Shown here one piece after another: positions 2,994 through 34,017 of a stretch of 64,000 nt of DNA. A model generated the notes under the pieces. That model searched no databases. It saw only the letters and a list, made by a program, of their open reading frames with translations, and was not told the origin of the DNA. The position numbers and the translations under genes were made by a program. Source of the DNA: Candidatus Eiseniibacteriota bacterium (lineage in GTDB: Bacteria; Eisenbacteria; RBG-16-71-46; JABDJR01); assembly GCA_942491735.1 (NCBI GenBank), contig CALOCN010000001.1:1030071-1094070 (forward strand), written 5' to 3'. Each line of letters begins with the position of its first letter. The stretch's first letter is position 1.

Positions 2994-3737
2994 TTGGAGA
3001 CAGAGGTTTACGATTACTTCTACCACGCCGAAGAAGCCCACTGGTGGTTCCGGGCCCGGCGCCGGGTCCTGGCCTCGGTCCTGCGGGGAGTCCTCCCCAC
3101 CGGTTCGCTCCGCATCGCCGACGTGGGTTGCGGCACCGGGGGCATGCTGGGGGTGCTCTCCGAGCTGGGCACGGTCACCGGAGTCGACGCGGCGCCCGAG
3201 GCCCGCGACTATTGTCGTCGGCGGGGATTCGACAACGTCCTGGACCCGGATACCTGGGCCCGCGACGGCGCGTCCTATGATCTGGTCACCGCGTTCGATG
3301 TGGTGGAGCACGTCGAGGACGATGTGGGTTTTCTCCGCATGATGGCCAACCGCCTCGCCCCCGGGGGGCGTCTGTGCGTGACCGTCCCCGCCTACCAGTT
3401 TCTCTGGAGCACGTTCGACGAAATGAACCACCACAAACGTCGCTATTCCCGTCGGCGGTTGGTGGAAGCCATGAACGCGGCCGGGCTGCGCGTCACCCGC
3501 AGCACCCACTTCAACACGTTGCTGTTTCCGCCCATCGCCGCGGTGCGACTGTTGGAGAAGACCCTCCGCGCCGATCCCACCGACCCCGAGGAGAAGAAAC
3601 GTTCCCTGGCCCGTTGGTTCAAGGTGGGTCCCCTCAACGGTCCGCTGGAAGCGGTGTTCGCATCCGAACGACACGCACTGGCCGGTATGGATCTGCCGGT
3701 GGGTTGCTCCATCCTCGCCCTGGCGGAGTCCGCATGA
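2994..3737 (+). CDS. class I SAM-dependent methyltransferase
   Basis: SAM-binding motif I VGCGTGG; TTG start preceded by GGAGGA about 9 nt upstream. Confidence 0.75.
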   Translation: METEVYDYFYHAEEAHWWFRARRRVLASVLRGVLPTGSLRIADVGCGTGGMLGVLSELGTVTGVDAAPEARDYCRRRGFDNVLDPDTWARDGASYDLVTAFDVVEHVEDDVGFLRMMANRLAPGGRLCVTVPAYQFLWSTFDEMNHHKRRYSRRRLVEAMNAAGLRVTRSTHFNTLLFPPIAAVRLLEKTLRADPTDPEEKKRSLARWFKVGPLNGPLEAVFASERHALAGMDLPVGCSILALAESA

Positions 3738-5896
3738 AACAGGTCGTGACCAACAAGTCGGGAGAGCTGCGCATCCTCGAGGTCCCGGATCCGGCGCTGC
3801 AACCCGGCTTCGTGCTGGTGCGCACGGTCTGCTCCCTGGTCTCCCCGGGGACCGAGGGCGCCCAGGTCCGGGAAGGCAAGGCCGGTCTGCTGACCAAGGT
3901 GCGTGAACATCCGCGCGAGGTAAAGCAGGTCCTGGCCAAGCTCAAGAAGGAGGGCGTGCGCTCCGTGGCCAACCAGGTCCAGGAGAAGCTTGCCCAATGG
4001 CGTCCCCTGGGATACAGCCTGTCCGGCACCGTCATCGCGGTGGGGGAGGGCGTGGATGATCTGGCGGTGGGGGACGCGGTGGCCTGTGCCGGTGCGGGGT
4101 ATGCGATCCACGCGGAGCGGGTCTGTGTTCCCCGGAACCTCGTGGTACGCCACCCCGAGGGACTGACCCACGCGCAGGCCGCGTTCGTCACCCTGGGCGC
4201 GATCGCCCTTCAGGGGGTGCGGCGGGCCGAGCCCACCCTGGGCGAACGGGCGCTGGTGGTCGGGTTGGGTCTGGTCGGGCAACTGGCTACCCAGCTCCTG
4301 GTCGCCGCCGGGGTTCGGGTGCTGGTTCGCGACCTGGATCCGGCCCGGATCGCCCTGGCCCGCGAACTGGGAGCGGAGGCCGCGCTGGAAGGGGACGCGG
4401 ATCCCGAAGCCACCGCCGCCGCCTGGACCGGCGGGGTGGGGGTCGATCTGGCCCTGATCTGCGCCGCGACCCGCTCCAGCGCTCCGGTGGATGACGCGGC
4501 GCGCCTGCTGCGCGAACGGGGGCGGCTGGTCGTGGTCGGCGACGTGGGGCTGGAGTTGGAACGCGGCCCCTTCTACATGAAGGAACTCGACTTCACCCTG
4601 AGCAAGTCCTATGGCCCGGGCCGCTACGACCCGGTGTACGAGGAAGGCGGGGTGGATTACCCGGTGGGGTACGTGCGCTGGACCGAGGGCCGCAACATGG
4701 AAGCGGTGCTGGACCTGATCGCGCGCGGCCGCCTTTCGGTGGACCGTCTGGTGAGCGAAACCGTCGTCGTGGACGACGCCCCGGGCATCTACGAGAAGAT
4801 CGTCGCCGGCGAGGGTGGCCTGGCCAGCGTGATCACCTACCCCGAAACCAACGTGGCGCCCTCCCGCACGGTGCAGCTGACTCCGGCCGCGCCGGTCGAG
4901 GGCAAGGCCGGCGTGTTGGCGGTGGGAGCCGGCTACTTCGCCAAGGCCTTTCATCTTCCCAACCTCGCCCGGCAGGAGGCCCTGCACCTGGCCGGCGTGG
5001 TGAGCGGCACCGGCGCCAATGCCCGCCAGACCGCCGAACGCTACGGAGCTTCCTTCGCCGGCACGGACCTCGACGAAGCGCTGACCCAGCCCGGCGTGGA
5101 CGCGGTGCTGCTCTCGACCCGTCACCATCTTCATGTTCCCCAAGCCCTGGCCGCGATCCGCGCCGGCAAGCACGTTCTGGTGGAGAAGCCGCTGGCGCTG
5201 GACCGGGAGGGTCTGCGTGATCTGGCCCAGGCCCTGCAACGGAATCCGGTGCGGCTCGCGGTGGGGTTCAATCGCCGTCACGCACCCCTGGTGACGTCGT
5301 TGCGCGAGCTGCTTGCTGCCAGCGGCGGCCCCATCCACGGGGTCTACCGGATGAACGCGGGGCGCCTCCCCGCGGATCACTGGGTGAACGATCCGGTGGA
5401 AGGCGGGGGACGCATCCTCGGGGAGGGTGTCCACGTGTTCGACCTGTTCACCCATCTTGCGGGAACCCCGGTGCGGGTGCAGGCCTCCATGGTGCGTTCG
5501 GCCGACGACGCGGTCATCGATACCGACAACCTGACCGCCACCGTGACCTTCGAGAACGGATCGGTCCTCACGCTCCTCTACACCACCGCCGGTCCCAAGG
5601 GTTATCCCAAGGAACAGCTCGAGGTGTTCGCGCCCGGTCTGGCCGCCACGCTCATCGACTATCGCGAGCTGGCCTGGACCGGATCCCGAAGCGGGAAGAA
5701 GACCCTGCGCGCCGAGGACAAGGGGCAGGCCGCGGAGATGGACGCGTGGGCCGGGTATCTCACCGGCAAGGATGCAGCGGTCGCCGACTTCCAGGCCGCC
5801 GCGCTCTCCACCTGGCTCACCCTCATGGCCCTCGAGTCCGCGCGCACCGGGGAGCCCCGGGAGGTCGCGGCCACGCTGTCCGAGGTGCTTGGGTAG
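3734..5896 (+). CDS. bi-domain oxidoreductase (N-terminal MDR/zinc-ADH-like domain fused to Gfo/Idh/MocA-like domain)
   Basis: Internal ATG at 3734 (residue 121 of track ORF 3374..5896) overlaps upstream stop (ATGA); two dehydrogenase-like halves by eye. Confidence 0.75.
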   Translation: MKQVVTNKSGELRILEVPDPALQPGFVLVRTVCSLVSPGTEGAQVREGKAGLLTKVREHPREVKQVLAKLKKEGVRSVANQVQEKLAQWRPLGYSLSGTVIAVGEGVDDLAVGDAVACAGAGYAIHAERVCVPRNLVVRHPEGLTHAQAAFVTLGAIALQGVRRAEPTLGERALVVGLGLVGQLATQLLVAAGVRVLVRDLDPARIALARELGAEAALEGDADPEATAAAWTGGVGVDLALICAATRSSAPVDDAARLLRERGRLVVVGDVGLELERGPFYMKELDFTLSKSYGPGRYDPVYEEGGVDYPVGYVRWTEGRNMEAVLDLIARGRLSVDRLVSETVVVDDAPGIYEKIVAGEGGLASVITYPETNVAPSRTVQLTPAAPVEGKAGVLAVGAGYFAKAFHLPNLARQEALHLAGVVSGTGANARQTAERYGASFAGTDLDEALTQPGVDAVLLSTRHHLHVPQALAAIRAGKHVLVEKPLALDREGLRDLAQALQRNPVRLAVGFNRRHAPLVTSLRELLAASGGPIHGVYRMNAGRLPADHWVNDPVEGGGRILGEGVHVFDLFTHLAGTPVRVQASMVRSADDAVIDTDNLTATVTFENGSVLTLLYTTAGPKGYPKEQLEVFAPGLAATLIDYRELAWTGSRSGKKTLRAEDKGQAAEMDAWAGYLTGKDAAVADFQAAALSTWLTLMALESARTGEPREVAATLSEVLG

Positions 5897-5898
5897 CC

Positions 5899-7767
5899 GT
5901 GGGATTCCTGGGGGATCTCCGGTACTTCGGGCCCCGGTTGGGCCCAAACCGGGCCGTCCGACTCGTCGCGGCGAAGCTCTCCAAGACCCGTCGCAAACGC
6001 CGCCTGGCCGCGGATCTCGCCCGCCCCACCCCGCCGGACGCGGTGTGCCGCGGGTTGGGTTTGTCGAAGGACCCCCACGAACGGGTCGCGACCCTGCGCT
6101 CCTCCTGGGAGCAACTCGCCGCCGCCACCCTGCCTTCCCTGCCCGACCCGGACACCGCACGCCGCCACGCCGACGCAGTGCTGGCCGGTCGTCAGCACCT
6201 TTTCGACCAGGATCCCGACGTGGGTTGGCCCCCCAACTGGAACTGGCGCTGGGACGGAACCGACAACGCGGCGCGGTTCCGCGACGACATCCGCAGCACC
6301 TGGGAACTGCAACGTCTCCAGGGGCTGCTTCCGCTGGCCGTCGCGGCGCGGGCCCTGGCCAGCGAGGCGGATGCCGAGGCCTGGTTCACCGGGGTGGAGA
6401 GCTTCGCCGCGGCGCATCCCGGCCCGGGTGGAGTGGCCTGGGAAAGCGCGCTGGAGCTGGGACTCCGCTGCCTTGCCCTGGTCCAGGGGCTGGTCCTACT
6501 CGCGCCCACCGAGGCCTTTGCCACCCGGCACCTGAATGTCCTCACCGTGCTGGAGCGGCACCTGCGTTGGCTGGAGGCGGATCTGAGCCTGGACAAGGTA
6601 GTGCGCGGCAATCACCTCCTGGGCGAACTGGCCGGGCTGATCGCGGGGCGCCTTCTCTTTGCCGCGGACACGGGCAATCTGGAAACAGCCCGCCGGTCGC
6701 TGGACCTCCTGCACGGGGAAATCACAGCCCAGTTTCACCCGGACGGGGTCAACGTGGAGCAGTCCCTCACCTACGAGGCCTTCATCCTGGAGTTCCTGGT
6801 CGTCCCCCTAGCCATGGCCGACACCCTCGGGCGTGCGGTTCCCGCGGCAACCCGGGATCGCCTCACCCGGGCCGCTCACCATCTGGAATGCTGCACCGCG
6901 CCGGACGGATCGCTTCCCCGGGTGGGGGACGCCGATTCGGGCCGTGGAGCTGTCCTCGCCCCACCCAAAGAAGCCCTGCCCGGGCTTCTCGAGCGGGTCC
7001 GCCGGCTCGGCGGACCGGGCCCCGCCGCCTCCGGCGGGCCGTCCGGGGAACCCGCTTTGCCGCGCATCTTCCCCGACGGGGGCCATGTCACCTGGACCCC
7101 GGCCCCCGGGGCGTTCCTCTTCCTGCGGGGAGGGCCGTTTGGCTGGGGTCTTCCGGGACCGGCCTCGCACAGCCACGCGGACCTGCTGGCCCCGGTCCTC
7201 TACCTGGGCGGGGAGCCGCTCCTGGTGGATCCGGGGGTCTTTGGCTATCGCATCGGGGCCGATCGGGACGCGGATCGGGTCCGGGGGGCCCATTCGGCCC
7301 TGGATCCGGGGGCCTCGGTGGGGCCCTTCCCGGCCGGAACCTTCCGCTGGGCGGGCATTCCGGAGGATGCGAAGGTACACTCCCCGGCCCCGGACAGGGT
7401 CCAGGGGACGGTCCCCCTGGCCGGGCCAAACGGCCCTTTGATCTGGCAGAGGTCCATACGGTACAATCAATTAGACGAAACTTGGATAATCCTCGATCGC
7501 CTTCAAGGCAACCCACCCGGCCCCGTAACGTGGGGCTTTCGCTTTGCTCCAGGAATTCATATCGAGTCGGAGACGGAGGGCGTCTACCGGGTTCGTCTGG
7601 CTTCCGGTCGTACCCTGGATGTGCGTCTGGAACCGGTGGGAGAGACATGGGTCGAGGATGCATGGGTGGCGCCGGCCTACGGTCGGCGCGTCCAGGCGCC
7701 GGTTTTGAGGCGACGGATCGAAGGGGCCTTCGAAGAGACGGCCGTGACGTTCACCCCGCGGCGCTGA
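5899..7767 (+). CDS. heparinase II/III-like family protein
   Basis: GTG at 5899, 2 nt after upstream stop, in frame of track ORF 5746..7767; N-terminal [10 protein letters not shown] region and NHLLGE / EQSLTYE segments typical of the family by eye. Confidence 0.6.
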
Positions 7768-7795: not shown

Positions 7796-8728
7796 GTGAA
7801 CATCCTCATTACCGGGGGCGCGGGCTTTATCGGCTCCAATCTCTCCGAGTTCCTTCTGGGGCAGGGCCATCGCGTCATCGCCATGGACAACCTGCTGACC
7901 GGGAAGGTGGAGAACATCGAGCACATCCACCACCCGAAGTTCACGTTCATCGACTATGACGTGACCAACTTCATCTTTGTCGACGAGCCGCTGGACTACG
8001 TGCTGCACTTCGCCAGCCCGGCCAGCCCCATCGACTATCTCAAGCTTCCCATCGCCACCCTGAAGGTGGGGGCGATCGGGACCCACAAGGCGCTCGGGTT
8101 GGCCAAGGCCAAGGGGGCGAGCTTTCTCATCGCGTCGACCAGCGAGGTCTACGGGGATCCGCTGGTCCATCCCCAGGAGGAGTCGTACTGGGGAAACGTG
8201 AACCCCATCGGCATCCGCGGGGTCTATGACGAAGCCAAGCGGTTCGCCGAGGCCATGACCATGGCGTATCACCGGTACCACAAGGTGGACACCCGGATCC
8301 TGCGGATCTTCAACACCTTCGGACCGCGGATGCGCCGCAATGACGGTCGGGCGGTGCCCACCTTCATCAATCAGGCGCTGTCGAACCAGGACATCACGGT
8401 GTTCGGGGACGGATCGCAGACCCGCTCCTTCGGCTACATCGACGACCTGGTGGAGGGCATCTACAAGCTCATGCTCTCCAGCGAGAACGACCCGGTGAAC
8501 ATCGGCAATCCGCAGGAAATGACGGTGAAGGAGATGGCCGAGACCATCATCGAGCTCACCGGCTCCAAGAGCAAGATCATCTACGCGCCGCTTCCCGAGG
8601 ACGATCCCAAGGTGCGTCAGCCGGATATCTCCAAGGCCAAGCGGGTGTTGGACTGGGAACCCCGGACCCCGGTGCGCGAGGGCCTGATCAAGACGGTAGA
8701 ATGGTTCGCTGCCAACCACTCGAAGTGA
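7796..8728 (+). CDS. UDP-glucuronate decarboxylase (UDP-xylose synthase, ArnA-decarboxylase-like SDR)
   Basis: GTG start with AGGAG 5 nt upstream; TGGAGFIGS Rossmann motif, YDEAK catalytic motif; strong by-eye similarity to UXS proteins. Confidence 0.85.
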
Positions 8729-8732
8729 AGGA

Positions 8733-9452
8733 ATGCCTGTGAAGGGCCTCGTGGTCATTCCCACCTATAACGAAGCGGACAACATCCGCGAGCTCGTCCC
8801 CCGTGTCCTGGAACAGGACCCCGGTCTGGAGATCCTCGTCGTCGACGACAACTCGGTCGACGGCACGGGGGCGATCGTCGACGAGTTGCGGGCCACCGAG
8901 CCGCGCCTGCACATTCTCCACCGACCGGGCAAGATGGGTCTGGGTACGGCGTACGTGGACGGGTTCCGCTACGCCCTCGAGCGGGACTACGAAGTCGTGT
9001 TCGAGATGGACGCGGACTTCAGTCATGACCCGGACTCCCTGCCCGCGTTTCTCGAGGCCATCCAGGACAACGACCTGGTCATCGGCTCCCGGTATCTGCA
9101 CGGGGTCACGGTCGTCAACTGGCCGCTGACCCGTCTCATTCTTTCCTACGGGGCGAACGTCTACACCCGTCTCATCACCTGGATGCCGCTCAAGGACGCC
9201 ACCGGCGGCTTCAAGTGTTTCCGGCGGGAGACCCTCGAGGCGATCGACCTGGACCGGGTGGGTTCGGACGGGTACGGCTTCCAGATCGAGATGAACTTCA
9301 AGGTGTGGCGCAAGGGCTTCCGGGTGCGCGAGATCGGCATCGTCTTCGTGGATCGCCGGGTCGGTATCAGCAAGATGAACAACAAGATCATCTGGGAGGC
9401 GATGTGGTTGGTGTGGCGTCTGCGATTCCTCGATCTCGTGGGAAGGCTCTGA
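8733..9452 (+). CDS. polyprenol-phosphate sugar synthase (Dpm1/ArnC-like GT2)
   Basis: 239 aa; VIPTYNEADNI and DADFSHDP motifs characteristic of dolichol/polyprenol-phosphate mannosyl/glycosyl transferases. Confidence 0.8.
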   Translation: MPVKGLVVIPTYNEADNIRELVPRVLEQDPGLEILVVDDNSVDGTGAIVDELRATEPRLHILHRPGKMGLGTAYVDGFRYALERDYEVVFEMDADFSHDPDSLPAFLEAIQDNDLVIGSRYLHGVTVVNWPLTRLILSYGANVYTRLITWMPLKDATGGFKCFRRETLEAIDLDRVGSDGYGFQIEMNFKVWRKGFRVREIGIVFVDRRVGISKMNNKIIWEAMWLVWRLRFLDLVGRL

Positions 9453-9456: not shown

Positions 9457-11601
9457 GTGGTCGATCTCTCGATCGTCATCGTTTCCTACCGCACACCGGA
9501 GGTGTTGCGGGAGTGCCTGAAGGTGCTCACCACGGATACGGGGACACGCAGCCGCGAGATCCTGGTGGTGGACAACGACTCGGGAGACGAGAGCCCGGCC
9601 GTGGCCCGCTCCTTCGAGGGAGTCCGGGTCATCGAGACCGGTGACAACCTGGGATTTGCCGGCGGCGTCAATCGCGGACTGGCCGAGGCCGACGGCCGTT
9701 TCCTCCTCGTCCTCAACCCGGATATCGAGGTCCAGCCCGGCTCCCTGGACACCCTGATCGACTTCATGGAGGCGCACCCCGAGACCGGGATCGCCGCCCC
9801 CAAGCTGCTCAACACCGACGGCACCCTGCAGCACTCCTGCCGCCGCTTCTACACCCTGAGCACGATCATCCTGCGACGCTCCTTCCTGGGCCGGATCTTT
9901 CCCGATGCCGCGCCGCTGCGGCGGCACCTCATGTTGGACTACGACCACGAGACCCCGCGCGCGGTCGATTGGGTGGCCGGAGCGGCCATGCTGGTGCGTC
10001 GCGAGGCGCTGGACGATGTGGGTCCCATGGACGAGCGCTACTTCCTCTACTTCGAGGACGTGGACTGGTGCACCCGCATGCAGGCCCGCGGTTGGCTGGT
10101 GCACTACGTGCCGGACAGCGTCATGACCCACCATTGGCAACGGGCGAGCCGCACCCTGGGTCCGGCCGCGCGGCGCCACCTGCGCAGCGGGCTCCGCTTC
10201 TACGACCGCTGGGGCGGGTTCCTCCATGTGCTGCGGCAATCGGCCGGTGCGTGGCGGACCGGCGCCCTCGTGGCCCTGGACCTGTTGACCATCACCGCCG
10301 CGTTTCTCCTCGCCTTCCTCGCCCGTCAGCAGATGGCCTTCTGGCTCCAGAAACCGGTCTGGTCGCTCTCCTTCTACGGCAGCTTCTTCGCGGCGAGCGT
10401 GGTGGTGTACCTGGCCGGTTTCTCCATGCAGGGGCTGTACCGGGAAGTCCGCGAGGGGGACTGGGTGGATGTGGCCTTCAGGGTGATCAAGGGAGCGACC
10501 CTGGGCGCGTTGGTGCTGATGGCATCGACCTTCGTCCTGGACATGCGCTCCTACTCCCGCGCCATCGTGCTCGCCTCGTGGCCCCTGGCCGCCATGGGCG
10601 TGTTCCTCAACCGTCGCCTGGTCTACGCGCTCAGCGCGCGGGCGCGCCGCGAGCGGTGGAACCTGCGCCGGGTCGCCCTGATCGGCGAGGACCCGGCCAT
10701 GGATCGTCTGGAAGCCACGCTCCGGGAGAACACTGAGCTGGGCTGGGAACCGGTGCGGATTCGCCGCACTCCCTGGGTGGGTCTGCCGCCCCGGGACGCC
10801 GACGCGCTGCTCATCACCCTCCTGGCCCGGGAGCGGGTCACCGAAGTGGTGGTCAGCCCCACCGCGTTGGGTGTGGCCGAGGATGCCGTGGCCGAACGCA
10901 TTCTCCCGCTGCGCCGCGCCGGTCACGGGGTTCGTCTGGTCTCCAACTTCCTCTCCGCGCTGCCTCCGCGGGCCCGGGTGGAACGGATCGGTGACGTCAG
11001 CTGGCTCGCCCTGGAACGGCCCCGCCTGCAGCCCACCAAGACCAGCAAGCGGGTGCTGGATCTGGCGGGGGCCCTTGTGCTTGGTGGGTTGGGTCTCCTT
11101 CCCGTGTTGGCCCTGGGCGCGGCCCGTGGCCTCGCCCGGCGCGAGTTTCTGGAACCTGGGACCCCCTGGAAGGGTCGATGGGGGGAGACCCTGCGTGTCC
11201 GGCGGATTGCCGGCGGGGGTCGTCTCGCCGATTACCCCCTGCTGGGCGCCGTGCTGAGGGGGCGGCTCAGCCTGGTGGGACCACGTCCGCTGGCTCCGGG
11301 GGAAACGGTTCCCGGGGGAGACGCCTGGCTTCGGGTGCGTGAGCACCACCGTCCCGGTCTGGTGGGTCCCTGGTCGCTGGTCGCGACCCAGACCCCTGAA
11401 GAGGAGATGCAACAGGAACTTCGGTATCTCGAAGATTGGACTGCGGAACTCGATCTCAAGCTCCTGGCGCGGGTGGCACTTCGCCGCCCGGGAGGCGGTC
11501 ATGGCAGCGGGTCCAGTTCTCCCGCGCGTCGCACGGAGACCGCTCCCGATGGCCGACCCTCGGCCGCCCCGCGCAGTGCCCACCCCATGGGGACCTCCTG
11601 A
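9457..11601 (+). CDS. fusion protein: N-terminal GT2 glycosyltransferase + membrane region + C-terminal polyprenyl-phosphate sugar phosphotransferase (Bac_transf-like)
   Basis: GTG start; N-terminus IVIVSYRTPE...VVDNDSGD (GT2); central hydrophobic segments; C-terminal region with RVLDLAGALVLGGLGL and PGLVGPWSL resembling WbaP/WcaJ-type sugar transferases. Confidence 0.65.
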   Translation: MVDLSIVIVSYRTPEVLRECLKVLTTDTGTRSREILVVDNDSGDESPAVARSFEGVRVIETGDNLGFAGGVNRGLAEADGRFLLVLNPDIEVQPGSLDTLIDFMEAHPETGIAAPKLLNTDGTLQHSCRRFYTLSTIILRRSFLGRIFPDAAPLRRHLMLDYDHETPRAVDWVAGAAMLVRREALDDVGPMDERYFLYFEDVDWCTRMQARGWLVHYVPDSVMTHHWQRASRTLGPAARRHLRSGLRFYDRWGGFLHVLRQSAGAWRTGALVALDLLTITAAFLLAFLARQQMAFWLQKPVWSLSFYGSFFAASVVVYLAGFSMQGLYREVREGDWVDVAFRVIKGATLGALVLMASTFVLDMRSYSRAIVLASWPLAAMGVFLNRRLVYALSARARRERWNLRRVALIGEDPAMDRLEATLRENTELGWEPVRIRRTPWVGLPPRDADALLITLLARERVTEVVVSPTALGVAEDAVAERILPLRRAGHGVRLVSNFLSALPPRARVERIGDVSWLALERPRLQPTKTSKRVLDLAGALVLGGLGLLPVLALGAARGLARREFLEPGTPWKGRWGETLRVRRIAGGGRLADYPLLGAVLRGRLSLVGPRPLAPGETVPGGDAWLRVREHHRPGLVGPWSLVATQTPEEEMQQELRYLEDWTAELDLKLLARVALRRPGGGHGSGSSSPARRTETAPDGRPSAAPRSAHPMGTS

Positions 11602-13874
11602 TGCATCACACTCCACGACACGGTCGGCTTCTCCCGGCCGTCCTGGCCCTTCTCGCGATTGCCGTCGCCCTCCCGCCGAACGTCCGGGCCCAGAACGCCG
11701 CCGACGCGTTTACCCCGTTCGTCGCCGCGTTCGACCTCACCGAGATCACCACCACCGGGGGCGTCCTGTGGATCGCCACCAACGGGGGGGGCGCGTTGCG
11801 TTTCGATCCCAACGGCGGCGGGTTCACCCAGTACCCCAAGTTGTTGGGCACCGGGCCGAGGGGCAACGACCTCGTCACCACCTGCGTCGATTCGGAGGGC
11901 CGGGTCTGGTTCGGCAGCGCCACCCGGGGTTTCACCTTCTTTGATCCGCAGACGCAGACCTGGGATCGCCGCTCGGAGGAATGGCCCGACCCACGGATCC
12001 GGGTCATCCGCTGCCTCGAGGAAGGGGTCTACATCGGCACCCAGGAGGGGCTCTCCCTGAAACCCACCGCCAACCGGACCGACATCTGTGCACCGGCCGA
12101 CCCCAGCTGCATTGTTCCCTCGTTCATCGTCAACGACTACGCCCTCCTGGACGAGAGTCTCTGGGTGGCGACCCGCGAGGGGTTGGGACGGTTCAGCGAG
12201 GGGACGTGGGACTCGCTGAACACGCTGCCGGTCGGGTCCCAGGGGCAGAACTCGCTCTCGCTGGTCACCTTCGAGGGGCAGCTCTGGGAAGCGGCGGAGT
12301 TCGCCGCCTCGACCGGGGCGGTGCGACGCCTGGTGGACGGGGCCTGGCAGGTGTTCGAGCTGCCGGCGCACAGGTTGCGCGTCCTCGACGGATCGCTCTA
12401 CGCCATCGCGGCCGGGGATCTGTTCCGCTGGGACGGTACCGCGTTCCAGCCCCTGTCCGAGCCGGTGGACGATGACATTCGCGACGTAGCTCTCCTGGAC
12501 GGTGTCTATTGGTTGACCACCGGCAACGGGTTGGTTTCCTGGAACGGCACCGCGGCCACGTCGACCCGCTTCGTTCCGCCCGGGTTGGGGCTGGGGGGGG
12601 AGTTCCAGGCCCTCACCGTGGACAGCAAGGGGACGGTGTGGGCCGGCACCATCGGGAACCGGATCGGCATTGCCTCCCGGACCCGAACCGGCGAGTGGGA
12701 CACGATCCTGCCGGGAGCGAGCGGCCTGGAGAACGAGTGGATCTTCCAGCTGTATGCCGACAGTGGGGATCGGTTGTGGATCGGACACTGCTGTTGTCCC
12801 GAGGGACGCTGCCGACTCGAGGTGGATTGTGCCGGCGGCATCGGGAGTATCGCCACCTACCGCAACGGGTGGGCGTTCGCCGAGGACAACGCCCGCCGCA
12901 TGTGGGTGGGGACGGATCAACTCGGCGCGTTGGTCTTCCGGCGCACCACGGACTGTTCCTGGGAGCTCGAGGATCAACTGACCGCCTCGGACCCCGCCGG
13001 CGTCATGTCTTCCAACAGCGTGCGCGCCATCGCGGTCACCGGGGAAGGCACCTACTTCGGCCACCTGCAGAACGGGCTCGACTACTGGCCGCACCGCGGC
13101 AACCTGAGCACGGGGCGGGACGGGTCGAACTGGATCCATGTCGGAACCACCGGCTTCGGACTCCTCGACAACAACGTGGGCTCCATTGCCCTGGTGGGGG
13201 AGGATGCCTGGGTCGGCACCTCGAGCGGCCTGCACCGGTTCCGCGCCGGGGGTCTGGTGACCCGGTGTCCCTCGCGTATTCTCGACGACCTGGACGATCA
13301 GGCCCGTCGGGTCACCGCGGTCACCGTCGATCGGGACGGGAACCTCTGGGTGGGGACGGATTCGGGACTGCTGTTCCTGCGGCGCGGAGGAGCCTGTGAC
13401 GCGGGCGGCGGCGAGTTCCTGTCCTACACCCAGGACAACTCCGCACTCCCGGACAACAACGTGCTCTCGGCCACCCTCAACCCGGTGGATGGTTCGGTCT
13501 GGATGGGAACGTCCACCGGTCTGCTGCGGATTGACCCCGCCGTCTTCACCAGCGGAGGAGGGAGCGCACCGGACCAGTACGTGCTCTATCCGAACCCCGT
13601 CGATCTGACCCGGGTCGGGGCGCGGGTGAGTCTGGGACTGGAGTCCGGCGGCTCCGTGGATCGCGTTCCCCTGGCCGATGCCCAGCAGCCGGAGGTCCTC
13701 GACATGGCGGGTCAGGCGGTGGGCCGGTTCGATACCTTCATGGATGGCGGCGACGAGGGTTGGGTGTGGAACGGGAAGAACCTGACCGGGAGCGTGGTCG
13801 CCCCGGGACTCTATTTCGTGCGAACGCAGGTCGGAGGACAGACGGTGGTGCTCAAGCTCGGGGTAGTGCGATGA
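11601..13874 (+). CDS. secreted beta-propeller protein (two-component-regulator-propeller-like repeats) with C-terminal FlgD-Ig/T9SS-like domain
   Basis: Internal ATG 11601 (overlaps upstream stop, TGATG); signal-peptide-like MHHTPRHGRLLPAVLALLAIAVALPPNVRAQ; about 10 repeats of LW[IV]GT..GL..F type; C-terminal YPNP...WNGKN..G..V..GLYFV. Confidence 0.65.
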   Translation: MHHTPRHGRLLPAVLALLAIAVALPPNVRAQNAADAFTPFVAAFDLTEITTTGGVLWIATNGGGALRFDPNGGGFTQYPKLLGTGPRGNDLVTTCVDSEGRVWFGSATRGFTFFDPQTQTWDRRSEEWPDPRIRVIRCLEEGVYIGTQEGLSLKPTANRTDICAPADPSCIVPSFIVNDYALLDESLWVATREGLGRFSEGTWDSLNTLPVGSQGQNSLSLVTFEGQLWEAAEFAASTGAVRRLVDGAWQVFELPAHRLRVLDGSLYAIAAGDLFRWDGTAFQPLSEPVDDDIRDVALLDGVYWLTTGNGLVSWNGTAATSTRFVPPGLGLGGEFQALTVDSKGTVWAGTIGNRIGIASRTRTGEWDTILPGASGLENEWIFQLYADSGDRLWIGHCCCPEGRCRLEVDCAGGIGSIATYRNGWAFAEDNARRMWVGTDQLGALVFRRTTDCSWELEDQLTASDPAGVMSSNSVRAIAVTGEGTYFGHLQNGLDYWPHRGNLSTGRDGSNWIHVGTTGFGLLDNNVGSIALVGEDAWVGTSSGLHRFRAGGLVTRCPSRILDDLDDQARRVTAVTVDRDGNLWVGTDSGLLFLRRGGACDAGGGEFLSYTQDNSALPDNNVLSATLNPVDGSVWMGTSTGLLRIDPAVFTSGGGSAPDQYVLYPNPVDLTRVGARVSLGLESGGSVDRVPLADAQQPEVLDMAGQAVGRFDTFMDGGDEGWVWNGKNLTGSVVAPGLYFVRTQVGGQTVVLKLGVVR

Positions 13875-15325
13875 CTGAGAGTCGGGTCCTCATTGTCGGC
13901 GCGGGGAGCGCCGGGCGTATGACCCTGCGGGAGCTGCGCGCCCATCCGGAATCGGGAACGGTACCGGTCGGGTTCATCGACGATGGCGCCGCGCTGCACG
14001 GCACCGAGGTCGACGGCCTGCCGGTGCTGGGGGGACGCCAGGATCTCCCCGCCCATCTGGAGGCGACCGGCGCCGAGGGCATCCTCATCGCCCTTCCGTC
14101 GGTGCACGGAGCGGTGATCCGGGAGATCGTCGAGACCTGTCGTGAAGCGCGGATCCGCTTCACCATTGTCCCCGGGATCTGGGAGATCATCCGGGGCGAC
14201 GTGCACTTCGAGCACATCCGGCGTATCGAGCCCGAGGATCTGCTCGGTCGTCAGACCGTCGAGGCCGACGCCTCCGTCCTCACCCCGGCCTATCGCGGGA
14301 AGCGGATTCTCGTCACCGGCGCGGGCGGATCCATCGGACGCGAGCTGGCCCGTCAGGTGCTGGCCCTGGAACCGGAGCGGGTCACCCTGCTGGGCCGGGG
14401 GGAGAACAGCCTCTTCGAGAGCGAGCTGCACCTGCGCCCGCATGCCGGACGCACGCCGGTAAACCTGGCCCTGGTCGACGTGCGCGACGTGGCCGCGGTG
14501 ACGCGCACCCTGGCCTCGGTGAAGCCGGACATCGTGCTTCATGCCGCCGCCCACAAGCACGTGACCTTCATGGAGCGCCACCCGGAAGAGGCCATCCTCA
14601 ACAACGTGATCGCCACCCGCAATCTCGTCGTCGCGGCCGAGGCGGCCGGGACCGAGCGCTTCGTCATGCTCTCCACCGACAAGGCGGTGAACCCGCGCAG
14701 TGTCATGGGCGCCTCCAAGCGGGTCGCGGAGCTGGTCCTGGGGGACCGCACCCGTCAGGGCTCCCCGGTGCGTCTCATGGCGGTGCGGTTCGGCAACGTG
14801 CTGGGTAGCCGGGGGTCGGTGGTCCCGCTCTTCCAGCATCAGATCGCCCGGGGAGGGCCGGTCACCGTGTCCCATCAGGACGTGGCCCGCTACTTCATGA
14901 CGGTGAGCGAGGCGGCCATGCTGGTTCTGGAAGCGGGCGCACTGGGAGACGGGGGCGAGGTGTTCATCCTCGACATGGGCGAGCAGCTCTCCATCCTGGA
15001 GTTGGCGCGGGATCTCATCGTGCTTTCGGGCAAGCGGCCCGAGACCGACATCCCGGTGGTCATTACCGGTCTTCAGACCGGCGAGAAACTCCGCGAGGAG
15101 CTGGTCCACGACTTCGAGGAACTGGCTCCCACCCGTCTGGCCAAGATTTCCGCCGCCCGGCGCCGCGAGGGCTCCGATCCCGACCTGTCCCGGGCCCTGG
15201 AAGAGCTGGAGTCGCTGGCGTTGAACGCCGATCGCCGGGGCATCGTCCATGCGCTGACCGCGTTGCTCCCCGAAGCCGAACTGGTACTCCCCGACAAGCC
15301 GGTCGCCGCGGACAGCGACGCCTGA
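13871..15325 (+). CDS. polysaccharide biosynthesis protein CapD/PglF/WbpM family (nucleotide-sugar 4,6-dehydratase), soluble form
   Basis: Internal ATG 13871 (ATGA overlap); two Rossmann-like regions (VGAGSAG, TGAGGSIG) and FGNVLGSRGSV motif. Confidence 0.8.
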   Translation: MTESRVLIVGAGSAGRMTLRELRAHPESGTVPVGFIDDGAALHGTEVDGLPVLGGRQDLPAHLEATGAEGILIALPSVHGAVIREIVETCREARIRFTIVPGIWEIIRGDVHFEHIRRIEPEDLLGRQTVEADASVLTPAYRGKRILVTGAGGSIGRELARQVLALEPERVTLLGRGENSLFESELHLRPHAGRTPVNLALVDVRDVAAVTRTLASVKPDIVLHAAAHKHVTFMERHPEEAILNNVIATRNLVVAAEAAGTERFVMLSTDKAVNPRSVMGASKRVAELVLGDRTRQGSPVRLMAVRFGNVLGSRGSVVPLFQHQIARGGPVTVSHQDVARYFMTVSEAAMLVLEAGALGDGGEVFILDMGEQLSILELARDLIVLSGKRPETDIPVVITGLQTGEKLREELVHDFEELAPTRLAKISAARRREGSDPDLSRALEELESLALNADRRGIVHALTALLPEAELVLPDKPVAADSDA

Positions 15326-15333: not shown

Positions 15334-16311
15334 GTGGTGGACGTTCTGGACGCCGACGCGCCCCCCGAGGGAATGGACGCGCTCTGGACCTCGGTGCCCG
15401 GGGCCACCCTGTTCCTGCAACCGAGATGGACCGAGACCCTTTCCCGCGCCTTTCCCGGGCTTCGGTCCCGTTATCTGATCGCCCGCGAGGGGAACCGCCT
15501 GACCGGCGTGTTGCCCTACACCCTCAAACGCAAGCTGGGTCTGGATCAGGTGCTTTCCTCCCCCTTCGGGACCCACGGGGGTCCGCTCACCGCCGACGGT
15601 CCCACCGCATCCCGTCTCGCCGAGGCGTTCCACAAGCGCGCCACCCGCCCCACCGTGGTCCGCTGCGAGCTCACCGTATTCGATCCCTCCTCGGAACTGA
15701 CCGAGGCCCTGCGCCCGTCCCTGGGCACGTGGTTCCAGGAGTTCCAGACCCACGTCATCGACCTCACCCCGGGGCACGAGGAACTCTGGCTTCACCGGTA
15801 TCGGCGCAACACCCGCAACTGTGTCCGGATGGCCGAACGGGCCGGGCTGCTCTACACGGTGGAGCGGGACGAGGCGGCGCTTGCCTTCCTCGCCCGTACC
15901 CACGCCGAACAGGCCGAGGCCTGGACCGGCATTCCTCCCGTCCCCCTGGAGGCGCTGCGGGTGGTGATGGACGCCTACGGTAATGACGCACGCATTCTGG
16001 TGGGACGCCGGGAGGGGGAGCCGGTGTGCGCCATTCTCATGCTGGAACAGTCGGGGCGGGAAACCCACGCCTGGGTCAGCGGAGCGGTGCCCGAAGCACG
16101 GCCCTTGCGCGCCTATCACGGGCTGATCGACGCCACCATCAAGGACGCCTGCTCCCGCGGGGTAGCCGCGTATCACTTCGGCGGAAGCGGTCGGAAGGAA
16201 AAGCTCGAGTTCTTCAAGGAGACCTTCGCCGCCAAACCGGTCCCCGTCTTGCGTTGCTTCCACATGGCGGGCTGGTTTCGCAGGCTCCGCCGGGGGCCGG
16301 CATGGGACTGA
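15334..16311 (+). CDS. FemAB-like / BioF2-like GNAT-fold acyl- or aminoacyl-transferase
   Basis: GTG start; by-eye resemblance to Acetyltransf_6/FemAB family proteins common in EPS loci. Confidence 0.55.
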   Translation: MVDVLDADAPPEGMDALWTSVPGATLFLQPRWTETLSRAFPGLRSRYLIAREGNRLTGVLPYTLKRKLGLDQVLSSPFGTHGGPLTADGPTASRLAEAFHKRATRPTVVRCELTVFDPSSELTEALRPSLGTWFQEFQTHVIDLTPGHEELWLHRYRRNTRNCVRMAERAGLLYTVERDEAALAFLARTHAEQAEAWTGIPPVPLEALRVVMDAYGNDARILVGRREGEPVCAILMLEQSGRETHAWVSGAVPEARPLRAYHGLIDATIKDACSRGVAAYHFGGSGRKEKLEFFKETFAAKPVPVLRCFHMAGWFRRLRRGPAWD

Positions 16312-17891
16312 GCCGGCTCCTGCCCCTGGCCCTGGTCCTGGTCGCCGTCCTGTTGGGGATCGTGCTCGTTGAGCCCTATCGCGCGGTCACGGTCGAGTTC
16401 GACGACGGACGCACCCTGTCCGTGGTGAACCCGGAACGTCTCAACCACACCTCGGACGTGTGGGACTACCTGCAGCTGGGACGCCGGTTGTTCGAGGGAT
16501 ACGGCTTCAGCAGCCGCTTCACCTATGTCCCGTTCCTGCCGGAGTCCGCCGCGTATCTGGAGGAGCATGACGCGTTCCCGCTCCTCTGGCGCCAACCCGG
16601 CTATCCGGCGCTGCTCGCCCTGGGCTACCGGTTGGCCGGGGGGCCGGACCCCAACGTCCTGCTGGCCCTGCAGCTCCTGTGGGTGATCCTGCTCCCCCTG
16701 GCCACGCTCTACCTGGCCCGCGCCCTGCTCCCGCCGGGAGGCGCCGCGCTGGCCGCCGGGCTCGCCCTGGCTTCGCCGCTCGTGCTGGGTGTACGGGAAC
16801 CCTTGGTGGCGACCACCTTCTTTGCCTGCTGGACCGCGCTCCTTTTCGGTACCGCGCTTCGGGTGCGGGGGCCCATGGGGGTGATCGGGTTGGGGCTGTT
16901 GATCGGGGTGGGGGCCTTGTTCCGCCAGGAGACCTGGCTTCTCGTTCCCGCACTGTTCACCGTGTGGTGGGTGCGAGGCGAGCGGGGGCGGGTGAGCGGG
17001 GTGGCCATCGCCGCGGTCACGGTCCTCCTCGTGCTGCTCCCCTGGATGGTTCGCACCGCGCAGATCACCGGGCACCCGTTCTACAACGCGGCGTCGCTGA
17101 TCTACCACGACACCCCGTCCTTTCCCGGCTGGGCCGCCTCGCGCACCCTGGCCATCCGCGAAACGACCCCGCTCGCGTTCATCCTGGCCCATCCCCTCGA
17201 CATCCTGGCCAAGAGTGCGCTGAACCTGCTCCGGTTCGGCAGGGACCTGCTGCTGCTGCCGGGACCTGCCGCGGCCCTGTTCGCCTGGTGGTTCCTCATT
17301 CGTCCCCAGTCGACCCAACCGCGGGTTCGCGCGTACCGGTGGGGCTACCTGGTTGCCCTTGCCGTTCCGGTACTCGTACTGGCCCCCATGGAGTACGCCC
17401 CCCGTTTTCTCGCCCCCATGGTTCCCCTGGGGGCCACCGCGGCCGCCTTCGCCCTGTCCCGGATTCCCGGTCGGTCGCGTCTGTTGACCGTCGTGGTGCT
17501 CGTGGTGTCCCTGGTCGTGCTGGTCTCCGCGATTCGCAACCGACCGGTCCGGGGAACCGCTCCCGAGGCGATTCGCGACCTGCAGGAACTGGTGTTGCAG
17601 GTGGGGCCCCGCGCACTGGAGCCGGACCAGGTCGTGGTGAGCGATGCCCCGACCCTCTTTGCCTATCTCTGGGATCGGCCGGCAGTGTGGGCACCGGTGC
17701 CGTTGAGCATGCCGGCGGTTCGGGAACTGGTCCCGGTCCGGCTCGGTCTCCTCACCTGCACGGGCGGCATCTATGACGGTCTGCCCCCGGAACTCCTGGG
17801 GCGCTACGCGGCCTACGGCCGGGTGACCCCGCATGGGTGTCGGGCCTGGGTGGACTTCGCTGACCCGCCCGCGGAAGCGACCACCCCATGA
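16302..17891 (+). CDS. polytopic membrane protein, putative GT-C glycosyltransferase (ArnT/PMT-like)
   Basis: Internal ATG 16302; many hydrophobic segments; first-loop motif DVWDYLQLGRRLFEGYG resembling the D(E)xxYxxxAR motif of GT39/GT83 enzymes; assignment tentative. Confidence 0.4.
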   Translation: MGLSRLLPLALVLVAVLLGIVLVEPYRAVTVEFDDGRTLSVVNPERLNHTSDVWDYLQLGRRLFEGYGFSSRFTYVPFLPESAAYLEEHDAFPLLWRQPGYPALLALGYRLAGGPDPNVLLALQLLWVILLPLATLYLARALLPPGGAALAAGLALASPLVLGVREPLVATTFFACWTALLFGTALRVRGPMGVIGLGLLIGVGALFRQETWLLVPALFTVWWVRGERGRVSGVAIAAVTVLLVLLPWMVRTAQITGHPFYNAASLIYHDTPSFPGWAASRTLAIRETTPLAFILAHPLDILAKSALNLLRFGRDLLLLPGPAAALFAWWFLIRPQSTQPRVRAYRWGYLVALAVPVLVLAPMEYAPRFLAPMVPLGATAAAFALSRIPGRSRLLTVVVLVVSLVVLVSAIRNRPVRGTAPEAIRDLQELVLQVGPRALEPDQVVVSDAPTLFAYLWDRPAVWAPVPLSMPAVRELVPVRLGLLTCTGGIYDGLPPELLGRYAAYGRVTPHGCRAWVDFADPPAEATTP

Positions 17892-19438
17892 GCCGCATCC
17901 GCACCAACACCGCGGCCCTTACCGTGAGTTTCTTCGCCACCGCGGCGTTCTACTTCGTCCAGCTCAAGATCATCACCAATTTCCTCAGTCAGACGCAGGT
18001 GGGCGCGTGGACCGCGGTGACCGCGACCGCGCTCCTCCTCATTCCCTTTGCCGAATTGGGGATGGCCCAGGTCCTGGTGCGCTACGGCGCCAAGTACGAG
18101 GCCGAGGGACGCGCCGGTCGATTGGTGGGGTTGTTCGTGCTCTCGTTGAAGGTTCTCGCCGGGGGCGCGCTGGTCGCGGCGGGTGTCCTGCTCCTGACCG
18201 GCCCCTCCCTGGCCGAGTTCCTCGGGAAGGGGGATGAGGAGATCAACCGATGGCTGCTGTTGTTGGGCTTCGCCGCGCTGACCACCGGTTCGCTTCGCGC
18301 CCTGAACAACGCCGCCCTGAGAGGTCTGCGTCGCATGCCGGCCATGGCCGGGTTGGAGATCGGTTTCGGCGCGCTGGTCACGGTGGGTTACTTCCTCTTT
18401 CGTGACCGTCTGGATGTGGGCATGGTGTTCGTGCTCTGGGGTGCGGCGAGCCTCGGGGTCGCGGTGAGCGGCATGGTCTATCTGGTGCGACAGTTCCGCG
18501 CGCTCCCCCCCGATCCCGCGCCCGGAGGGATCCTGCGCGAAGTGCAGGGGTTCTGGCAGGGGGCGGCGACCGGCGGCATTTTCCTCATCGCCATCGAACA
18601 ACTCGACAAGCCCATCCTGGCCGGAATGGTCACCCTGGACCAGCTCGCCCTCTTCCATGTCGCGTCGCGGCTTGCGTTGTTCCCGAGGCGATTGGCCTAT
18701 GTTCCGCTCCAGGTGCTCTACCCGGAAATCACCCACAAGTGGGAGGGGCCCCGGCGTCACGAGTTGCGCGCGGACATGGAGTTGTTCACCAAGCTGATGC
18801 TGGGACTGGGGCTGGCCATGGTCGCGGTCCTGGCCGTCTTCGCCGAACCCCTGCTCCGTCTCAGCTCCAAACCCGAGTACGTGAGCGCAGCCCCGGTGCT
18901 GTGGATGTTCCTGGCCGTGCTGCCGCTCATCTCGCTGCATCAGCCCATGGTCGTCTTCCTGCGTGCCACCGGCATGGTCTGGTACGCCTTCGTGGCCGAG
19001 GCGGCGTGGCTCGTTTCCTACCTGGGAGTGGGGATGCTGCTCCTGTCCCGGTTCGGTCTTCCCGGTTTCGTGGGTGGGCAACTGGTCGCCTCGAGCCTGG
19101 TGCTGGTCTACCTCCTGTTCATCTTCCACCGCCTGGAACTGCCCCGTCCCACCGTGGTCTTCTACCTCAAGCGCTTCCTGGTTTCGACCTTGGTGTGGGT
19201 TCCCTCCGTGGCCATCGGTTCCCGCTTCACCCCGGAGACGATTCCCGCGGCCCTGGTTGCGGTGGTGGGTCTGCTGCTGGTGGGGAATCTGATGGTGGTG
19301 TTGGGCGGTTTCCTCACCCGGGACGAGGAGGACCGGACCCTGGCCATGTTGGCCGGCCGGGGTCGTCTGGGGAGCCTGATCGGATTCTTCTTCGCCTGGC
19401 CACGACGCTTGCTGGGCCTGCGGGGGACGAGCGGGTGA
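17888..19438 (+). CDS. Wzx-like flippase (MOP-superfamily polysaccharide biosynthesis protein)
   Basis: 516 aa, hydrophobic throughout with multiple predicted TM helices; ATG overlaps upstream stop (ATGA). Confidence 0.7.
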   Translation: MSRIRTNTAALTVSFFATAAFYFVQLKIITNFLSQTQVGAWTAVTATALLLIPFAELGMAQVLVRYGAKYEAEGRAGRLVGLFVLSLKVLAGGALVAAGVLLLTGPSLAEFLGKGDEEINRWLLLLGFAALTTGSLRALNNAALRGLRRMPAMAGLEIGFGALVTVGYFLFRDRLDVGMVFVLWGAASLGVAVSGMVYLVRQFRALPPDPAPGGILREVQGFWQGAATGGIFLIAIEQLDKPILAGMVTLDQLALFHVASRLALFPRRLAYVPLQVLYPEITHKWEGPRRHELRADMELFTKLMLGLGLAMVAVLAVFAEPLLRLSSKPEYVSAAPVLWMFLAVLPLISLHQPMVVFLRATGMVWYAFVAEAAWLVSYLGVGMLLLSRFGLPGFVGGQLVASSLVLVYLLFIFHRLELPRPTVVFYLKRFLVSTLVWVPSVAIGSRFTPETIPAALVAVVGLLLVGNLMVVLGGFLTRDEEDRTLAMLAGRGRLGSLIGFFFAWPRRLLGLRGTSG

Positions 19439-20403: not shown

Positions 20404-20435
20404 TACACTTTTTCGGATTTTGCCCCGGGAGACCC

Positions 20436-25306: not shown

Positions 25307-25382
25307 ACGCAACAGCGTAGTGCAGCCTCTGGGGAACGTCGAGCGGATCACGCGCCGGGATTCGCGTGCGAAGGAGGTTTTC

Positions 25383-34016: not shown

Positions 34017-34017
34017 C

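Follow-up and report, generated by a model that had tools for sequence, protein, structure and literature searches.

A Bi-Domain Oxidoreductase Paired with a Heparinase II/III-Fold Protein in an Eisenbacteria Glycan Operon: A Recurrent Module with a Possible Role in Sugar Inversion

Introduction

The bacterial route to L-configured amino-uronic acids is largely unproven, for instance for the N-acetyl-L-galactosaminuronic acid (L-GalNAcA) contained in the O-antigen of Pseudomonas aeruginosa PA14 (PMC2997053). Here, we analyze two adjacent genes that may take part in such chemistry, found in a stretch of 64,000 nucleotides (hereafter the window) from a Candidatus Eiseniibacteriota bacterium (assembly GCA_942491735.1, contig CALOCN010000001.1, positions 1,030,071 to 1,094,070), with a G+C content of about 68%. 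The first gene encodes an oxidoreductase in which a medium-chain dehydrogenase/reductase (MDR) half is fused to a Gfo/Idh/MocA half (hereafter BiDom), and the second encodes a heparinase II/III-fold protein (hereafter HepLike).

The closest described systems come from exopolysaccharide (EPS) biosynthesis and from metazoan glycosaminoglycans. The EPS I of Ralstonia solanacearum is composed of N-acetylgalactosamine (GalNAc), a bacillosamine derivative, and galactosaminuronic acid (PMC3759889). The repeat unit of Acinetobacter RAG-1 holds the same three sugar types, i.e., GalNAc, GalNAcA, and QuiNAc4NHb (a derivative of N-acetylquinovosamine), all written as D forms (PMC3628348). In RAG-1, the adjacent genes weeE and weeF, renamed gnlA and gnlB, were postulated to synthesize UDP-L-GalpNAcA, and gnlB is found alone in Acinetobacter KL215 (PMC9676051). 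Uronic acids of the D-manno and L-galacto series are inverted with respect to each other at exactly C3 and C5 (PMC2279256). In metazoans, dermatan-sulfate epimerase 1 (DS-epi1) possesses all the catalytic residues of heparinase II, and the authors of that work argued that small changes turn a lyase into an epimerase (PMC8006597).

As a gene arrangement, the pairing described here has a precedent in the classical EPS I operon of Ralstonia; the window holds a divergent instance of a recurrent, biochemically uncharacterized module, one of thousands. What it adds is a divergent Eisenbacteria clade of HepLike and a natural comparison between clusters with and without BiDom.

HepLike, a Relative of Heparinase III Predicted to Be Cytoplasmic

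BiDom (3734-5896, ATG start, 720 aa) and HepLike (5899-7767, GTG start, 622 aa) are both encoded on the + strand, as seen in the frame plots of third-position GC (GC3) from which the genes were called. The ATG of BiDom lies within the TGA stop of the upstream methyltransferase gene, an ATGA overlap of the kind seen in translational coupling, and the GTG of HepLike follows the TAG stop of BiDom after only 2 nt ("cc"). This GTG start is supported by a 622-aa NCBI protein (P0001) that is identical to HepLike across 100% of its length. A preliminary description of the locus had already proposed a fused MDR and Gfo/Idh/MocA oxidoreductase, a heparinase II/III-family protein lying 2 nt downstream and lacking an obvious signal peptide, and a location among the glycosyltransferases of a biosynthetic cluster. 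The Pfam domains, the gene calls, the hydropathy values given below, and the surrounding genes (GT4, GT2, and GT-C glycosyltransferases (GT), Wzx, and an initiating transferase) agree with each of these points.

Pfam recognizes Hepar_II_III_N at residues 113-349 of HepLike (2.3e-13) and Hepar_II_III_C at residues 390-598 (3.1e-18), and the members of its sequence cluster are named at their source solely as "heparinase II/III family protein". The AlphaFold2 (AF2) model, obtained from a 42-sequence alignment with a predicted local distance difference test score (pLDDT) of 93.5, shows an (alpha/alpha) toroid joined to an anti-parallel beta-sandwich. Its best Foldseek matches are heparinase III enzymes (HepIII) of polysaccharide lyase (PL) family 12 (E 1e-17 to 2.5e-22), followed by PL35, PL17, PL33, and PL15 lyases, human DS-epi1 (E 3e-11), and heparinase II. 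Moreover, a profile of the HepLike family matches Pedobacter heparinase III with an E value of 5.5e-50. HepLike is genuinely related to PL12 heparinase III, and all of its closest relatives of solved structure are lyases.

The profile alignment places N238-H239 (codons 6610-6615, "GNHLL" motif), Y292 (codon 6772-6774), and H424 of HepLike on residues N216-H217, Y270, and H400 of the HepIII chain. With the 24 residues of the removed signal peptide added, these become N240/H241, Y294, and H424, which we take to be the catalytic residues of HepIII and presumably those of importance in mutational work. Conservation was followed in 64 HepLikes of biosynthetic clusters, representing at least three clades and collected either by homologue searches or because they adjoin BiDom genes. 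In this set, H239, Y292, Y450, H465, and R190 are invariant (64/64), and N238, which is kept in 62 sequences, is near-invariant together with D428, D444, R518, and D533. The H424 residue opens an H424-x-H426-x-D428 motif ("HSHAD", codons 7168-7182), which is found in the window clade and in intermediate clades and which, in the window clade, resembles the "SHSHGD" of PL15. Its HxH arrangement also resembles those of DS-epi1, in which we take H450 to be the catalytic His, and of heparinase II (H406/H408). The second His of the DS-epi1 HxH motif, H452, is a Mn ligand (PMC8006597); by their spacing, the HxH, D444, and H465 of HepLike could correspond to the DS-epi1 ligands H452 and E470. Judged from these residues, the active site of HepLike is intact.

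The location of HepLike was approached through its N-terminus. The highest Kyte-Doolittle hydropathy over 10 residues within its first 50 aa is 1.22, against 3.15 and 2.92, by the same measure, for two exported proteins of the same cluster, i.e., a PorZ-like protein and a lipoprotein. HepLike showed neither a signal peptide nor a lipobox nor a transmembrane segment. Signal peptides and transmembrane segments are likewise lacking in every HepLike clade, and none of 23 HepLikes drawn from all clades has an N-terminal hydrophobic segment (maximum ≤1.76). At the N-terminus, a conserved basic helix is packed into the fold in the model. HepLike is therefore clearly predicted to be a cytoplasmic protein. 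In one of its relatives (P0057, 1057 aa, from a cluster of 18 member sequences), a GT4 glycosyltransferase and a HepLike are joined in a single natural fusion protein.

BiDom, Two Dehydrogenases in One Chain

The N-terminal half of BiDom has an MDR fold (around residues 1-375, 3734-4858), with ADH_N at 91-141 (3.6e-5) and ADH_zinc_N at 181-298 (1e-17) in Pfam, and the C-terminal half has a Gfo/Idh/MocA fold (around residues 390-720, 4901-5896), with GFO_IDH_MocA at 394-512 (2e-23) and the C-terminal domains of that family at 535-707. BiDom clearly belongs to the family that NCBI names "bi-domain-containing oxidoreductase": full-length homologues bearing this name share 40-71% identity with it, and the family is large and well conserved, with 40-50% identity across many phyla. 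Both architectures are visible in the AF2 model (pLDDT 89.8; predicted template modeling score, pTM, 0.86), and a structure search found no PDB entry spanning the two halves.

In the MDR half, the GxGxxG motif (G177, G179, G182) and D200 are present, and a "GYS" (93-95) stands at the place of the zinc-binding "GHE" motif, which makes it of the zinc-less type. Its fold neighbors are TADH, 2,3-butanediol dehydrogenase, threonine dehydrogenase, and galactitol-1-phosphate dehydrogenase, i.e., polyol or secondary-alcohol dehydrogenases and not enoyl reductases. The Gfo/Idh/MocA half carries G398xG400, E484-K485-P486, G511xNRR, and GGGxxxGExxHxxD (557-570). Among its PDB neighbors are, by sequence, WbpB and a glucuronide 3-dehydrogenase and, by fold, scyllo-inositol/L-glucose dehydrogenase, DgpA1, levoglucosan dehydrogenase, and GenD2; against every NCBIfam equivalog, this half scores far under the cut-off. 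The presence of two secondary-alcohol dehydrogenases in one chain fits an inversion of a ring hydroxyl by oxidation and then reduction. The idea that the MDR half might act as an enoyl reductase on a double bond made by a lyase was set aside, its fold neighbors being polyol dehydrogenases.

The invariant columns of the family were read from alignments of 99, 33, and 33 sequences. The signature SYGPGRYD...YE..G.DYP...VRWTE, together with EKP and GxNRR, is present in the protein of the window. This signature, the most conserved of the family, lies in the loop S290-E318 (4601-4687) and is invariant across phyla, and residues 290-320 are the sole low-confidence stretch of the AF2 model (pLDDT 48-61). 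This conserved and, in the model, apparently mobile inter-domain loop could serve as a lid or bind a partner.

A Recurrent and Optional Pairing

The closest relatives of HepLike all come from metagenome-assembled genomes of Candidatus Eisenbacteria. BiDom lies directly upstream of HepLike in six of the eight Eisenbacteria loci, at a protein identity of only about 50%. The two others (L004 and L007) encode the HepLikes closest to that of the window (52-53% identity) in clusters that are otherwise colinear and lack BiDom. The upstream methyltransferase is absent in L005, L007, L009, and L010 and present in L001, L004, and L006; it varies independently of BiDom among these otherwise colinear clusters (L001 and L004-L010), a pattern that looks like the cassette-type variation of serotype-like glycans. 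The gene that follows HepLike at every Eisenbacteria locus encodes a UDP-glucuronate decarboxylase (UXS; 7796-8728 in the window), a short-chain dehydrogenase/reductase (SDR) that matches human UXS1 over its full length (E 1.9e-102, 346 bits) and is, on this evidence, a true member of that family. In the syntenic loci, an AsnB-like amidotransferase gene lies just upstream of the first GT4, at a position which corresponds to a point beyond the window start, and no wecB or wecC homologue was found in their flanks.

Outside this group, more distant HepLikes (27-30% identity) are also found in glycan clusters beside GT4, Wzx, and Wzy genes. A UDP-sugar 6-dehydrogenase gene comes immediately after HepLike in three loci (L011, L013, and L014), and in at least 14 of the 33 evaluable loci HepLike is immediately followed by a GT4. 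Conversely, three of four sampled BiDom homologues have both a Hepar_II_III gene within 6 kb and a UDP-sugar dehydrogenase gene. A search with the BiDom signature motifs returned 599 relatives from metagenomes, and the locus counts were made on the best 80 of them (metagenome loci L024-L103). When at least 2.5 kb were available on both sides (33 loci), HepLike was found at 11, an AsnB-like gene at 17, and either of them at 25; with at least 9 kb (15 loci), the corresponding numbers were 5, 8, and 12. HepLike and the AsnB-like gene occur together at only three of the 33 loci, and the AsnB-like gene is usually directly upstream of BiDom. A Streptomyces plasmid (L021) carries wecB, wecC, BiDom, and asnB and has no HepLike, and for Streptomyces coelicolor, a cluster induced on sporulation is listed with SCO0386, an asparagine synthetase, next to SCO0387, a bi-domain oxidoreductase (PMC3610822).

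The pair is also found in Proteobacteria. A tblastn search of plasmids with BiDom matched 132 Ralstonia megaplasmids, and in the annotated record of R. solanacearum, the match sits in the EPS I (eps) operon. This operon begins with genes for an export protein, a phosphatase, a tyrosine kinase, WecB, WecC, a major facilitator superfamily (MFS) transporter, and an EpsG-family protein; then come a GT4, an acyltransferase, the bi-domain oxidoreductase, and, with a 4-nt overlap, the heparinase II/III-family protein, followed by a GT4, a sugar transferase, an acetyltransferase, a DegT aminotransferase, and, further on, a PglF-like protein. BiDom and HepLike thus lie four genes past wecB/wecC. WecB and WecC produce UDP-D-ManNAcA (the UDP-linked N-acetyl-D-mannosaminuronic acid), and the uronic acid of EPS I is reportedly L-GalNAcA, as attributed to Orgambide in 1991. 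In the O-antigen cassettes of Pseudomonas mosselii and Marinobacterium, the order is AsnB-like, BiDom, HepLike, GT4, Bac_transf, PglD-like, DegT, and PglF-like. The O-antigen locus of P. aeruginosa PA14 may hold a pair of this kind as well. The BiDom of the window is 42% identical to that of the Ralstonia eps operon over its full length. The HepLikes of Ralstonia and Pseudomonas form a tight clade (53-60% internal identity), and that of the window groups with other clades.

Across distant phyla, the spacing between the two genes is a gap of 0-2 nt or a 4-nt overlap. The pairing is not due to chance, because the adjacency is kept at about 50% identity in Eisenbacteria and recurs in Proteobacteria. 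In conclusion, it is strongly non-random and optional in both directions.

A Proposed Role for the Pair and Its Alternatives

The preliminary description had suggested a sugar-modifying and non-degradative role for this pair. This is still the best reading, in view of the predicted cytoplasmic location, the conserved biosynthetic operon, the GT4 and UDP-sugar dehydrogenase neighbors, and the GT4 fusion. Its statement that the pair was uncharacterized appears to stand, as we found no biochemical study of it in the literature. The residue-conservation check that it proposed, carried out on both the profile alignment and the 64-sequence alignment, returned the lyase catalytic residues as kept. 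It had also held that such intact residues, together with a cleavable signal peptide, would indicate a conventional degradative enzyme: the residues are present and the signal peptide was not found, and the first of these signs does not discriminate, since DS-epi1 keeps the residues of heparinase II (PMC8006597). As for the pairing itself, co-occurrence supports a recurrent association and speaks against an obligate unit (HepLike at 11 of the 33 BiDom loci; BiDom absent in L004 and L007).

We propose that BiDom and HepLike would work as a pair in the cytoplasm, tailoring a sugar for a glycan pathway that depends on Wzx. The reading to which we give the most weight, at slightly less than an even chance, is that HepLike inverts C5 of a hexuronic acid and that BiDom inverts a ring hydroxyl, probably that of C3, by oxidation and re-reduction. 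HepLike would abstract the C5 proton of the hexuronic acid, a step common to the lyases and epimerases of this fold, and, instead of eliminating the 4-O substituent, would re-protonate C5 from the other face, which would convert the sugar from the D to the L series. It would then be a uronate C5-epimerase working like metazoan DS-epi1. The Gfo/Idh/MocA domain of BiDom would oxidize a ring hydroxyl to a ketone, most likely at C3 of the same sugar, and the MDR domain would reduce this ketone from the opposite face. Together with WecB/WecC, as in the Ralstonia eps operon, the pair would convert D-ManNAcA into L-GalNAcA, with C3 and C5 inverted, and HepLike without BiDom would give only the C5 epimer. 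The substrate might be a UDP-sugar or a lipid-linked intermediate. Epimerase rather than lyase chemistry for HepLike, by analogy with DS-epi1, and the C3 specificity suggested for BiDom are inferred components of this scheme. The C3 idea comes from the resemblance of the Gfo/Idh/MocA half to several sugar 3-dehydrogenases. Moreover, UDP-glucuronate would be available to the pathway of the window, because UXS adjoins HepLike, and the presence or absence of BiDom in colinear clusters fits an optional extra inversion step.

Several points weigh against this proposal. The catalytic residues cannot tell a lyase from an epimerase, and our literature search found no biochemical characterization of BiDom, of HepLike, or of the pair. 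The HepLike of the window belongs to another clade than the Ralstonia type and is followed by UXS and not by a GT4; it shares 25% identity over 346 aa (43 bits) with the Ralstonia-type partner, whose clade, as aligned, lacks the HxH motif (the alignment being uncertain there). The 64-kb window contains no gene for WecB, WecC, Ugd, or another UDP-sugar 6-dehydrogenase, nor for an aminotransferase, so that here we only infer a uronic-acid substrate. BiDom is found without HepLike in two thirds of the loci, and more often with AsnB-like genes. We know of no polysaccharide containing D-AltNAcA (N-acetyl-D-altrosaminuronic acid), the product expected from ManNAcA by inversion of C3 only. In Bordetella, an analogous L-galacto sugar is thought to be made by SDR enzymes (PMC2279256), and WeeE and WeeF are likely, but unconfirmed, members of the BiDom and HepLike families.

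Among the alternatives, the one that survives best is that the two proteins act on different sugars and are neighbors only because clusters for uronic-acid glycans commonly carry both as accessory cassettes; BiDom could, for example, perform a 3-oxidation upstream of an amidation or amination in which the AsnB-like enzyme takes part. BiDom indeed lacks HepLike at 22 of the 33 loci and accompanies an AsnB-like gene at 17, HepLike lacks BiDom in L004, in L007, and in distant clades, and the Streptomyces plasmid combines wecB, wecC, BiDom, and asnB without HepLike. We nevertheless consider it rather unlikely: direct adjacency (0-2 nt or a 4-nt overlap) recurs in distant phyla, co-occurrence at one third of the loci is far above chance for a rare family, and both genes are tied to those of uronic-acid supply.

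That HepLike is a working cytoplasmic beta-eliminase, biosynthetic or editing, seems improbable to us. In this reading, its target would be a 4-linked uronate, cleaved or trimmed while the intermediate is attached to UDP or undecaprenyl. Its product would be a 4,5-unsaturated uronate that BiDom, the redox enzyme translationally coupled upstream, might reduce or process. In its favor, HepLike keeps the full set of lyase catalytic residues, only lyases are found among its closest solved relatives, and lyases or hydrolases such as AlgL are an established theme within exopolysaccharide operons. However, these embedded lyases are, as far as we know, periplasmic proteins with signal peptides, and HepLike has none; the MDR half of BiDom resembles polyol dehydrogenases and not enoyl reductases; HepLike persists in the absence of BiDom; the cytoplasmic cleavage of a lipid-linked repeat unit would be wasteful; and, to our knowledge, unsaturated or 4-deoxy uronates are not regular native components of bacterial glycans.

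A non-catalytic function of HepLike, as a polysaccharide- or oligosaccharide-binding scaffold or as a chain-length factor for the assembly machinery, would suit its large cleft-containing fold, its association with GT4 genes, and the one GT4 fusion. The invariance of the catalytic Asn/His/Tyr/His and of putative metal ligands across clades of about 25% identity argues for retained chemistry and makes this function very unlikely. Finally, a conventional secreted degradative enzyme of the heparinase or alginate-lyase type, in the cluster by chance, agrees with the Pfam and NCBIfam family names, the fold, and the catalytic residues, but we rejected it, as having next to no probability, on localization and gene context, i.e., the lack of a signal peptide, lipobox, or transmembrane segment where the exported proteins of the cluster have clear ones, the 2-nt spacing in an operon with synteny kept at 50% identity, the lack of catabolic partners nearby (SusC/D, sulfatases, unsaturated glucuronyl hydrolase), and the GT4 fusion among HepLike relatives.

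The proposed inversion chemistry leads to a broader and still tentative view, whose chances we place somewhat below even: cytoplasmic heparinase II/III-fold proteins could be the missing bacterial C5-epimerases for L-hexuronic acids, and BiDom a self-contained epimerase for the second inversion. Such enzymes would give products such as L-GalNAcA, L-GulNAcA, L-AltNAcA (the corresponding gulo and altro acids), or L-iduronic acid (L-IdoA) in thousands of bacterial glycan clusters, and would be functional counterparts, possibly even evolutionary relatives, of the metazoan dermatan-sulfate epimerase. Among Eisenbacteria strains, the presence or absence of BiDom would then switch the configuration of a sugar and hence the serotype. 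If lyase-fold proteins are indeed C5-epimerases, a very large family annotated as "heparinase" is mis-named, the prediction of glycan structures from gene clusters would be improved, and glyco-engineering would gain a soluble enzyme of bacterial origin analogous to dermatan-sulfate epimerase.

The Surrounding Operon

The pair belongs to a single glycan biosynthesis operon on the + strand, which extends from the window start to around 23.5 kb and in which it is surrounded by GT4, four GT2, an initiating phosphotransferase, Wzx, a GT-C, and SDR enzymes. Upstream, domain searches identified a GT4 glycosyltransferase (32-1219), a GalE-like SDR (1255-2205), and a GT2 (2202-2951), and Pfam the S-adenosylmethionine (SAM)-dependent methyltransferase (2994-3737). 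Downstream of UXS come a Dpm1/ArnC-like GT2 (8733-9452), a GT2 fused to a Bac_transf domain (9457-11601), a PorZ-like exported protein with a C-terminal sorting domain of the type IX secretion system (T9SS; 11601-13874), and a PglF-like 4,6-dehydratase (13871-15325). They are followed by a first FemAB-like transferase (15334-16311), a PMT_2 GT-C (16302-17891), Wzx (17888-19438), a second FemAB-like transferase (19441-20403), the lipoprotein (20397-21464), a GT4 (21461-22606), and a GT2 (22609-23547), all on the + strand. No SusC/D, sulfatase, or unsaturated glucuronyl hydrolase gene is found among the genes annotated around the pair.

UXS lies beside a Dpm1/ArnC-like GT2, and the operon also encodes a PMT_2 GT-C, which points to the cytoplasmic synthesis of a polyprenyl-phosphate pentose, probably xylose, that is then transferred outside. 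The PorZ-like gene is kept inside the glycan operon at all the Eisenbacteria loci, and in L004 and L007, it lies with the GT2-Bac_transf gene in one stop-to-stop open reading frame of around 1445 aa. A link between BiDom and the PorZ-like gene was suspected and then dropped, the latter being present at every locus. The gene content of the cluster parallels the logic of anionic lipopolysaccharide (A-LPS) and linking sugars in the type IX secretion of Bacteroidota; the features that can be likened to it are the PorZ-like protein, the two FemAB-like transferases, Wzx, and the AsnB-like gene of the syntenic loci. The cluster may make an anchor glycan for T9SS cargo. Past the cluster, from 24398 to 39614, the genes are unrelated to it and include those for a diacylglycerol (DAG)-kinase-like protein, a formiminotransferase-cyclodeaminase, a TonB-dependent receptor, a second protein with a T9SS sorting domain, a sigma factor of the extracytoplasmic function (ECF) type, and rhodanese and metallo-beta-lactamase proteins.

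Comparison with Known Systems

The enzymes of the HepIII/HepC type (PL12; PDB 4mmh, 4fnv, and 5jmf) have the same toroid and sandwich fold as HepLike, and the Asn-His, Tyr, and His catalytic positions of HepIII align with its own, at only about 17% identity. On the other hand, the HepIII motif is HxQxD where HepLike has HxHxD, lyases of this type are exported whereas HepLike has no signal peptide, and PL12 lyases are found in catabolic contexts, unlike the biosynthetic operon of HepLike. With the fold and residues of PL12 and a predicted location and context that differ from it, HepLike would not be filed as a degradative heparinase. AlgL offers a precedent for a lyase encoded in a biosynthetic operon, that of alginate, and AlgG for a C5-epimerase with a lyase-like fold; both are periplasmic, and their folds differ from that of HepLike.

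The sugar 3-dehydrogenases of the WbpB/WlbA type are like the Gfo/Idh/MocA half of BiDom in their Rossmann fold, their EKP motif, and their C-terminal catalytic His/Asp motif, but BiDom carries a fused second dehydrogenase of the MDR type and has no partner aminotransferase. In Bordetella, WbmF/G/H are proposed to convert a D-manno into an L-galacto uronic acid, i.e., to invert C3 and C5, and these are SDRs and not a lyase-fold protein with a Gfo/Idh/MocA-MDR fusion.

Human DS-epi1 (PDB 6hzn) is a Golgi-luminal enzyme acting on a polymer, with an extra C-terminal domain, in all of which it differs from HepLike, and no similarity between the two is detectable at the sequence level. It is nonetheless a lyase-fold enzyme that epimerizes C5 of a uronic acid during biosynthesis, and, like HepLike, it contains an HxH motif; in DS-epi1, the metal is bound by the second His of this motif.

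The pairs of the Ralstonia eps operon, Pseudomonas, and Marinobacterium differ from that of the window in being followed by a GT4 where the window has UXS, and the Ralstonia operon possesses wecB/wecC, whereas the window has neither these genes nor a bacillosamine aminotransferase. They share with the window the same two-gene order, with a 4-nt overlap or no gap, and the eps-type clusters are, like that of the window, of the Wzx/Wzy type, with a GT4, an initiating transferase, and a PglF-like dehydratase.

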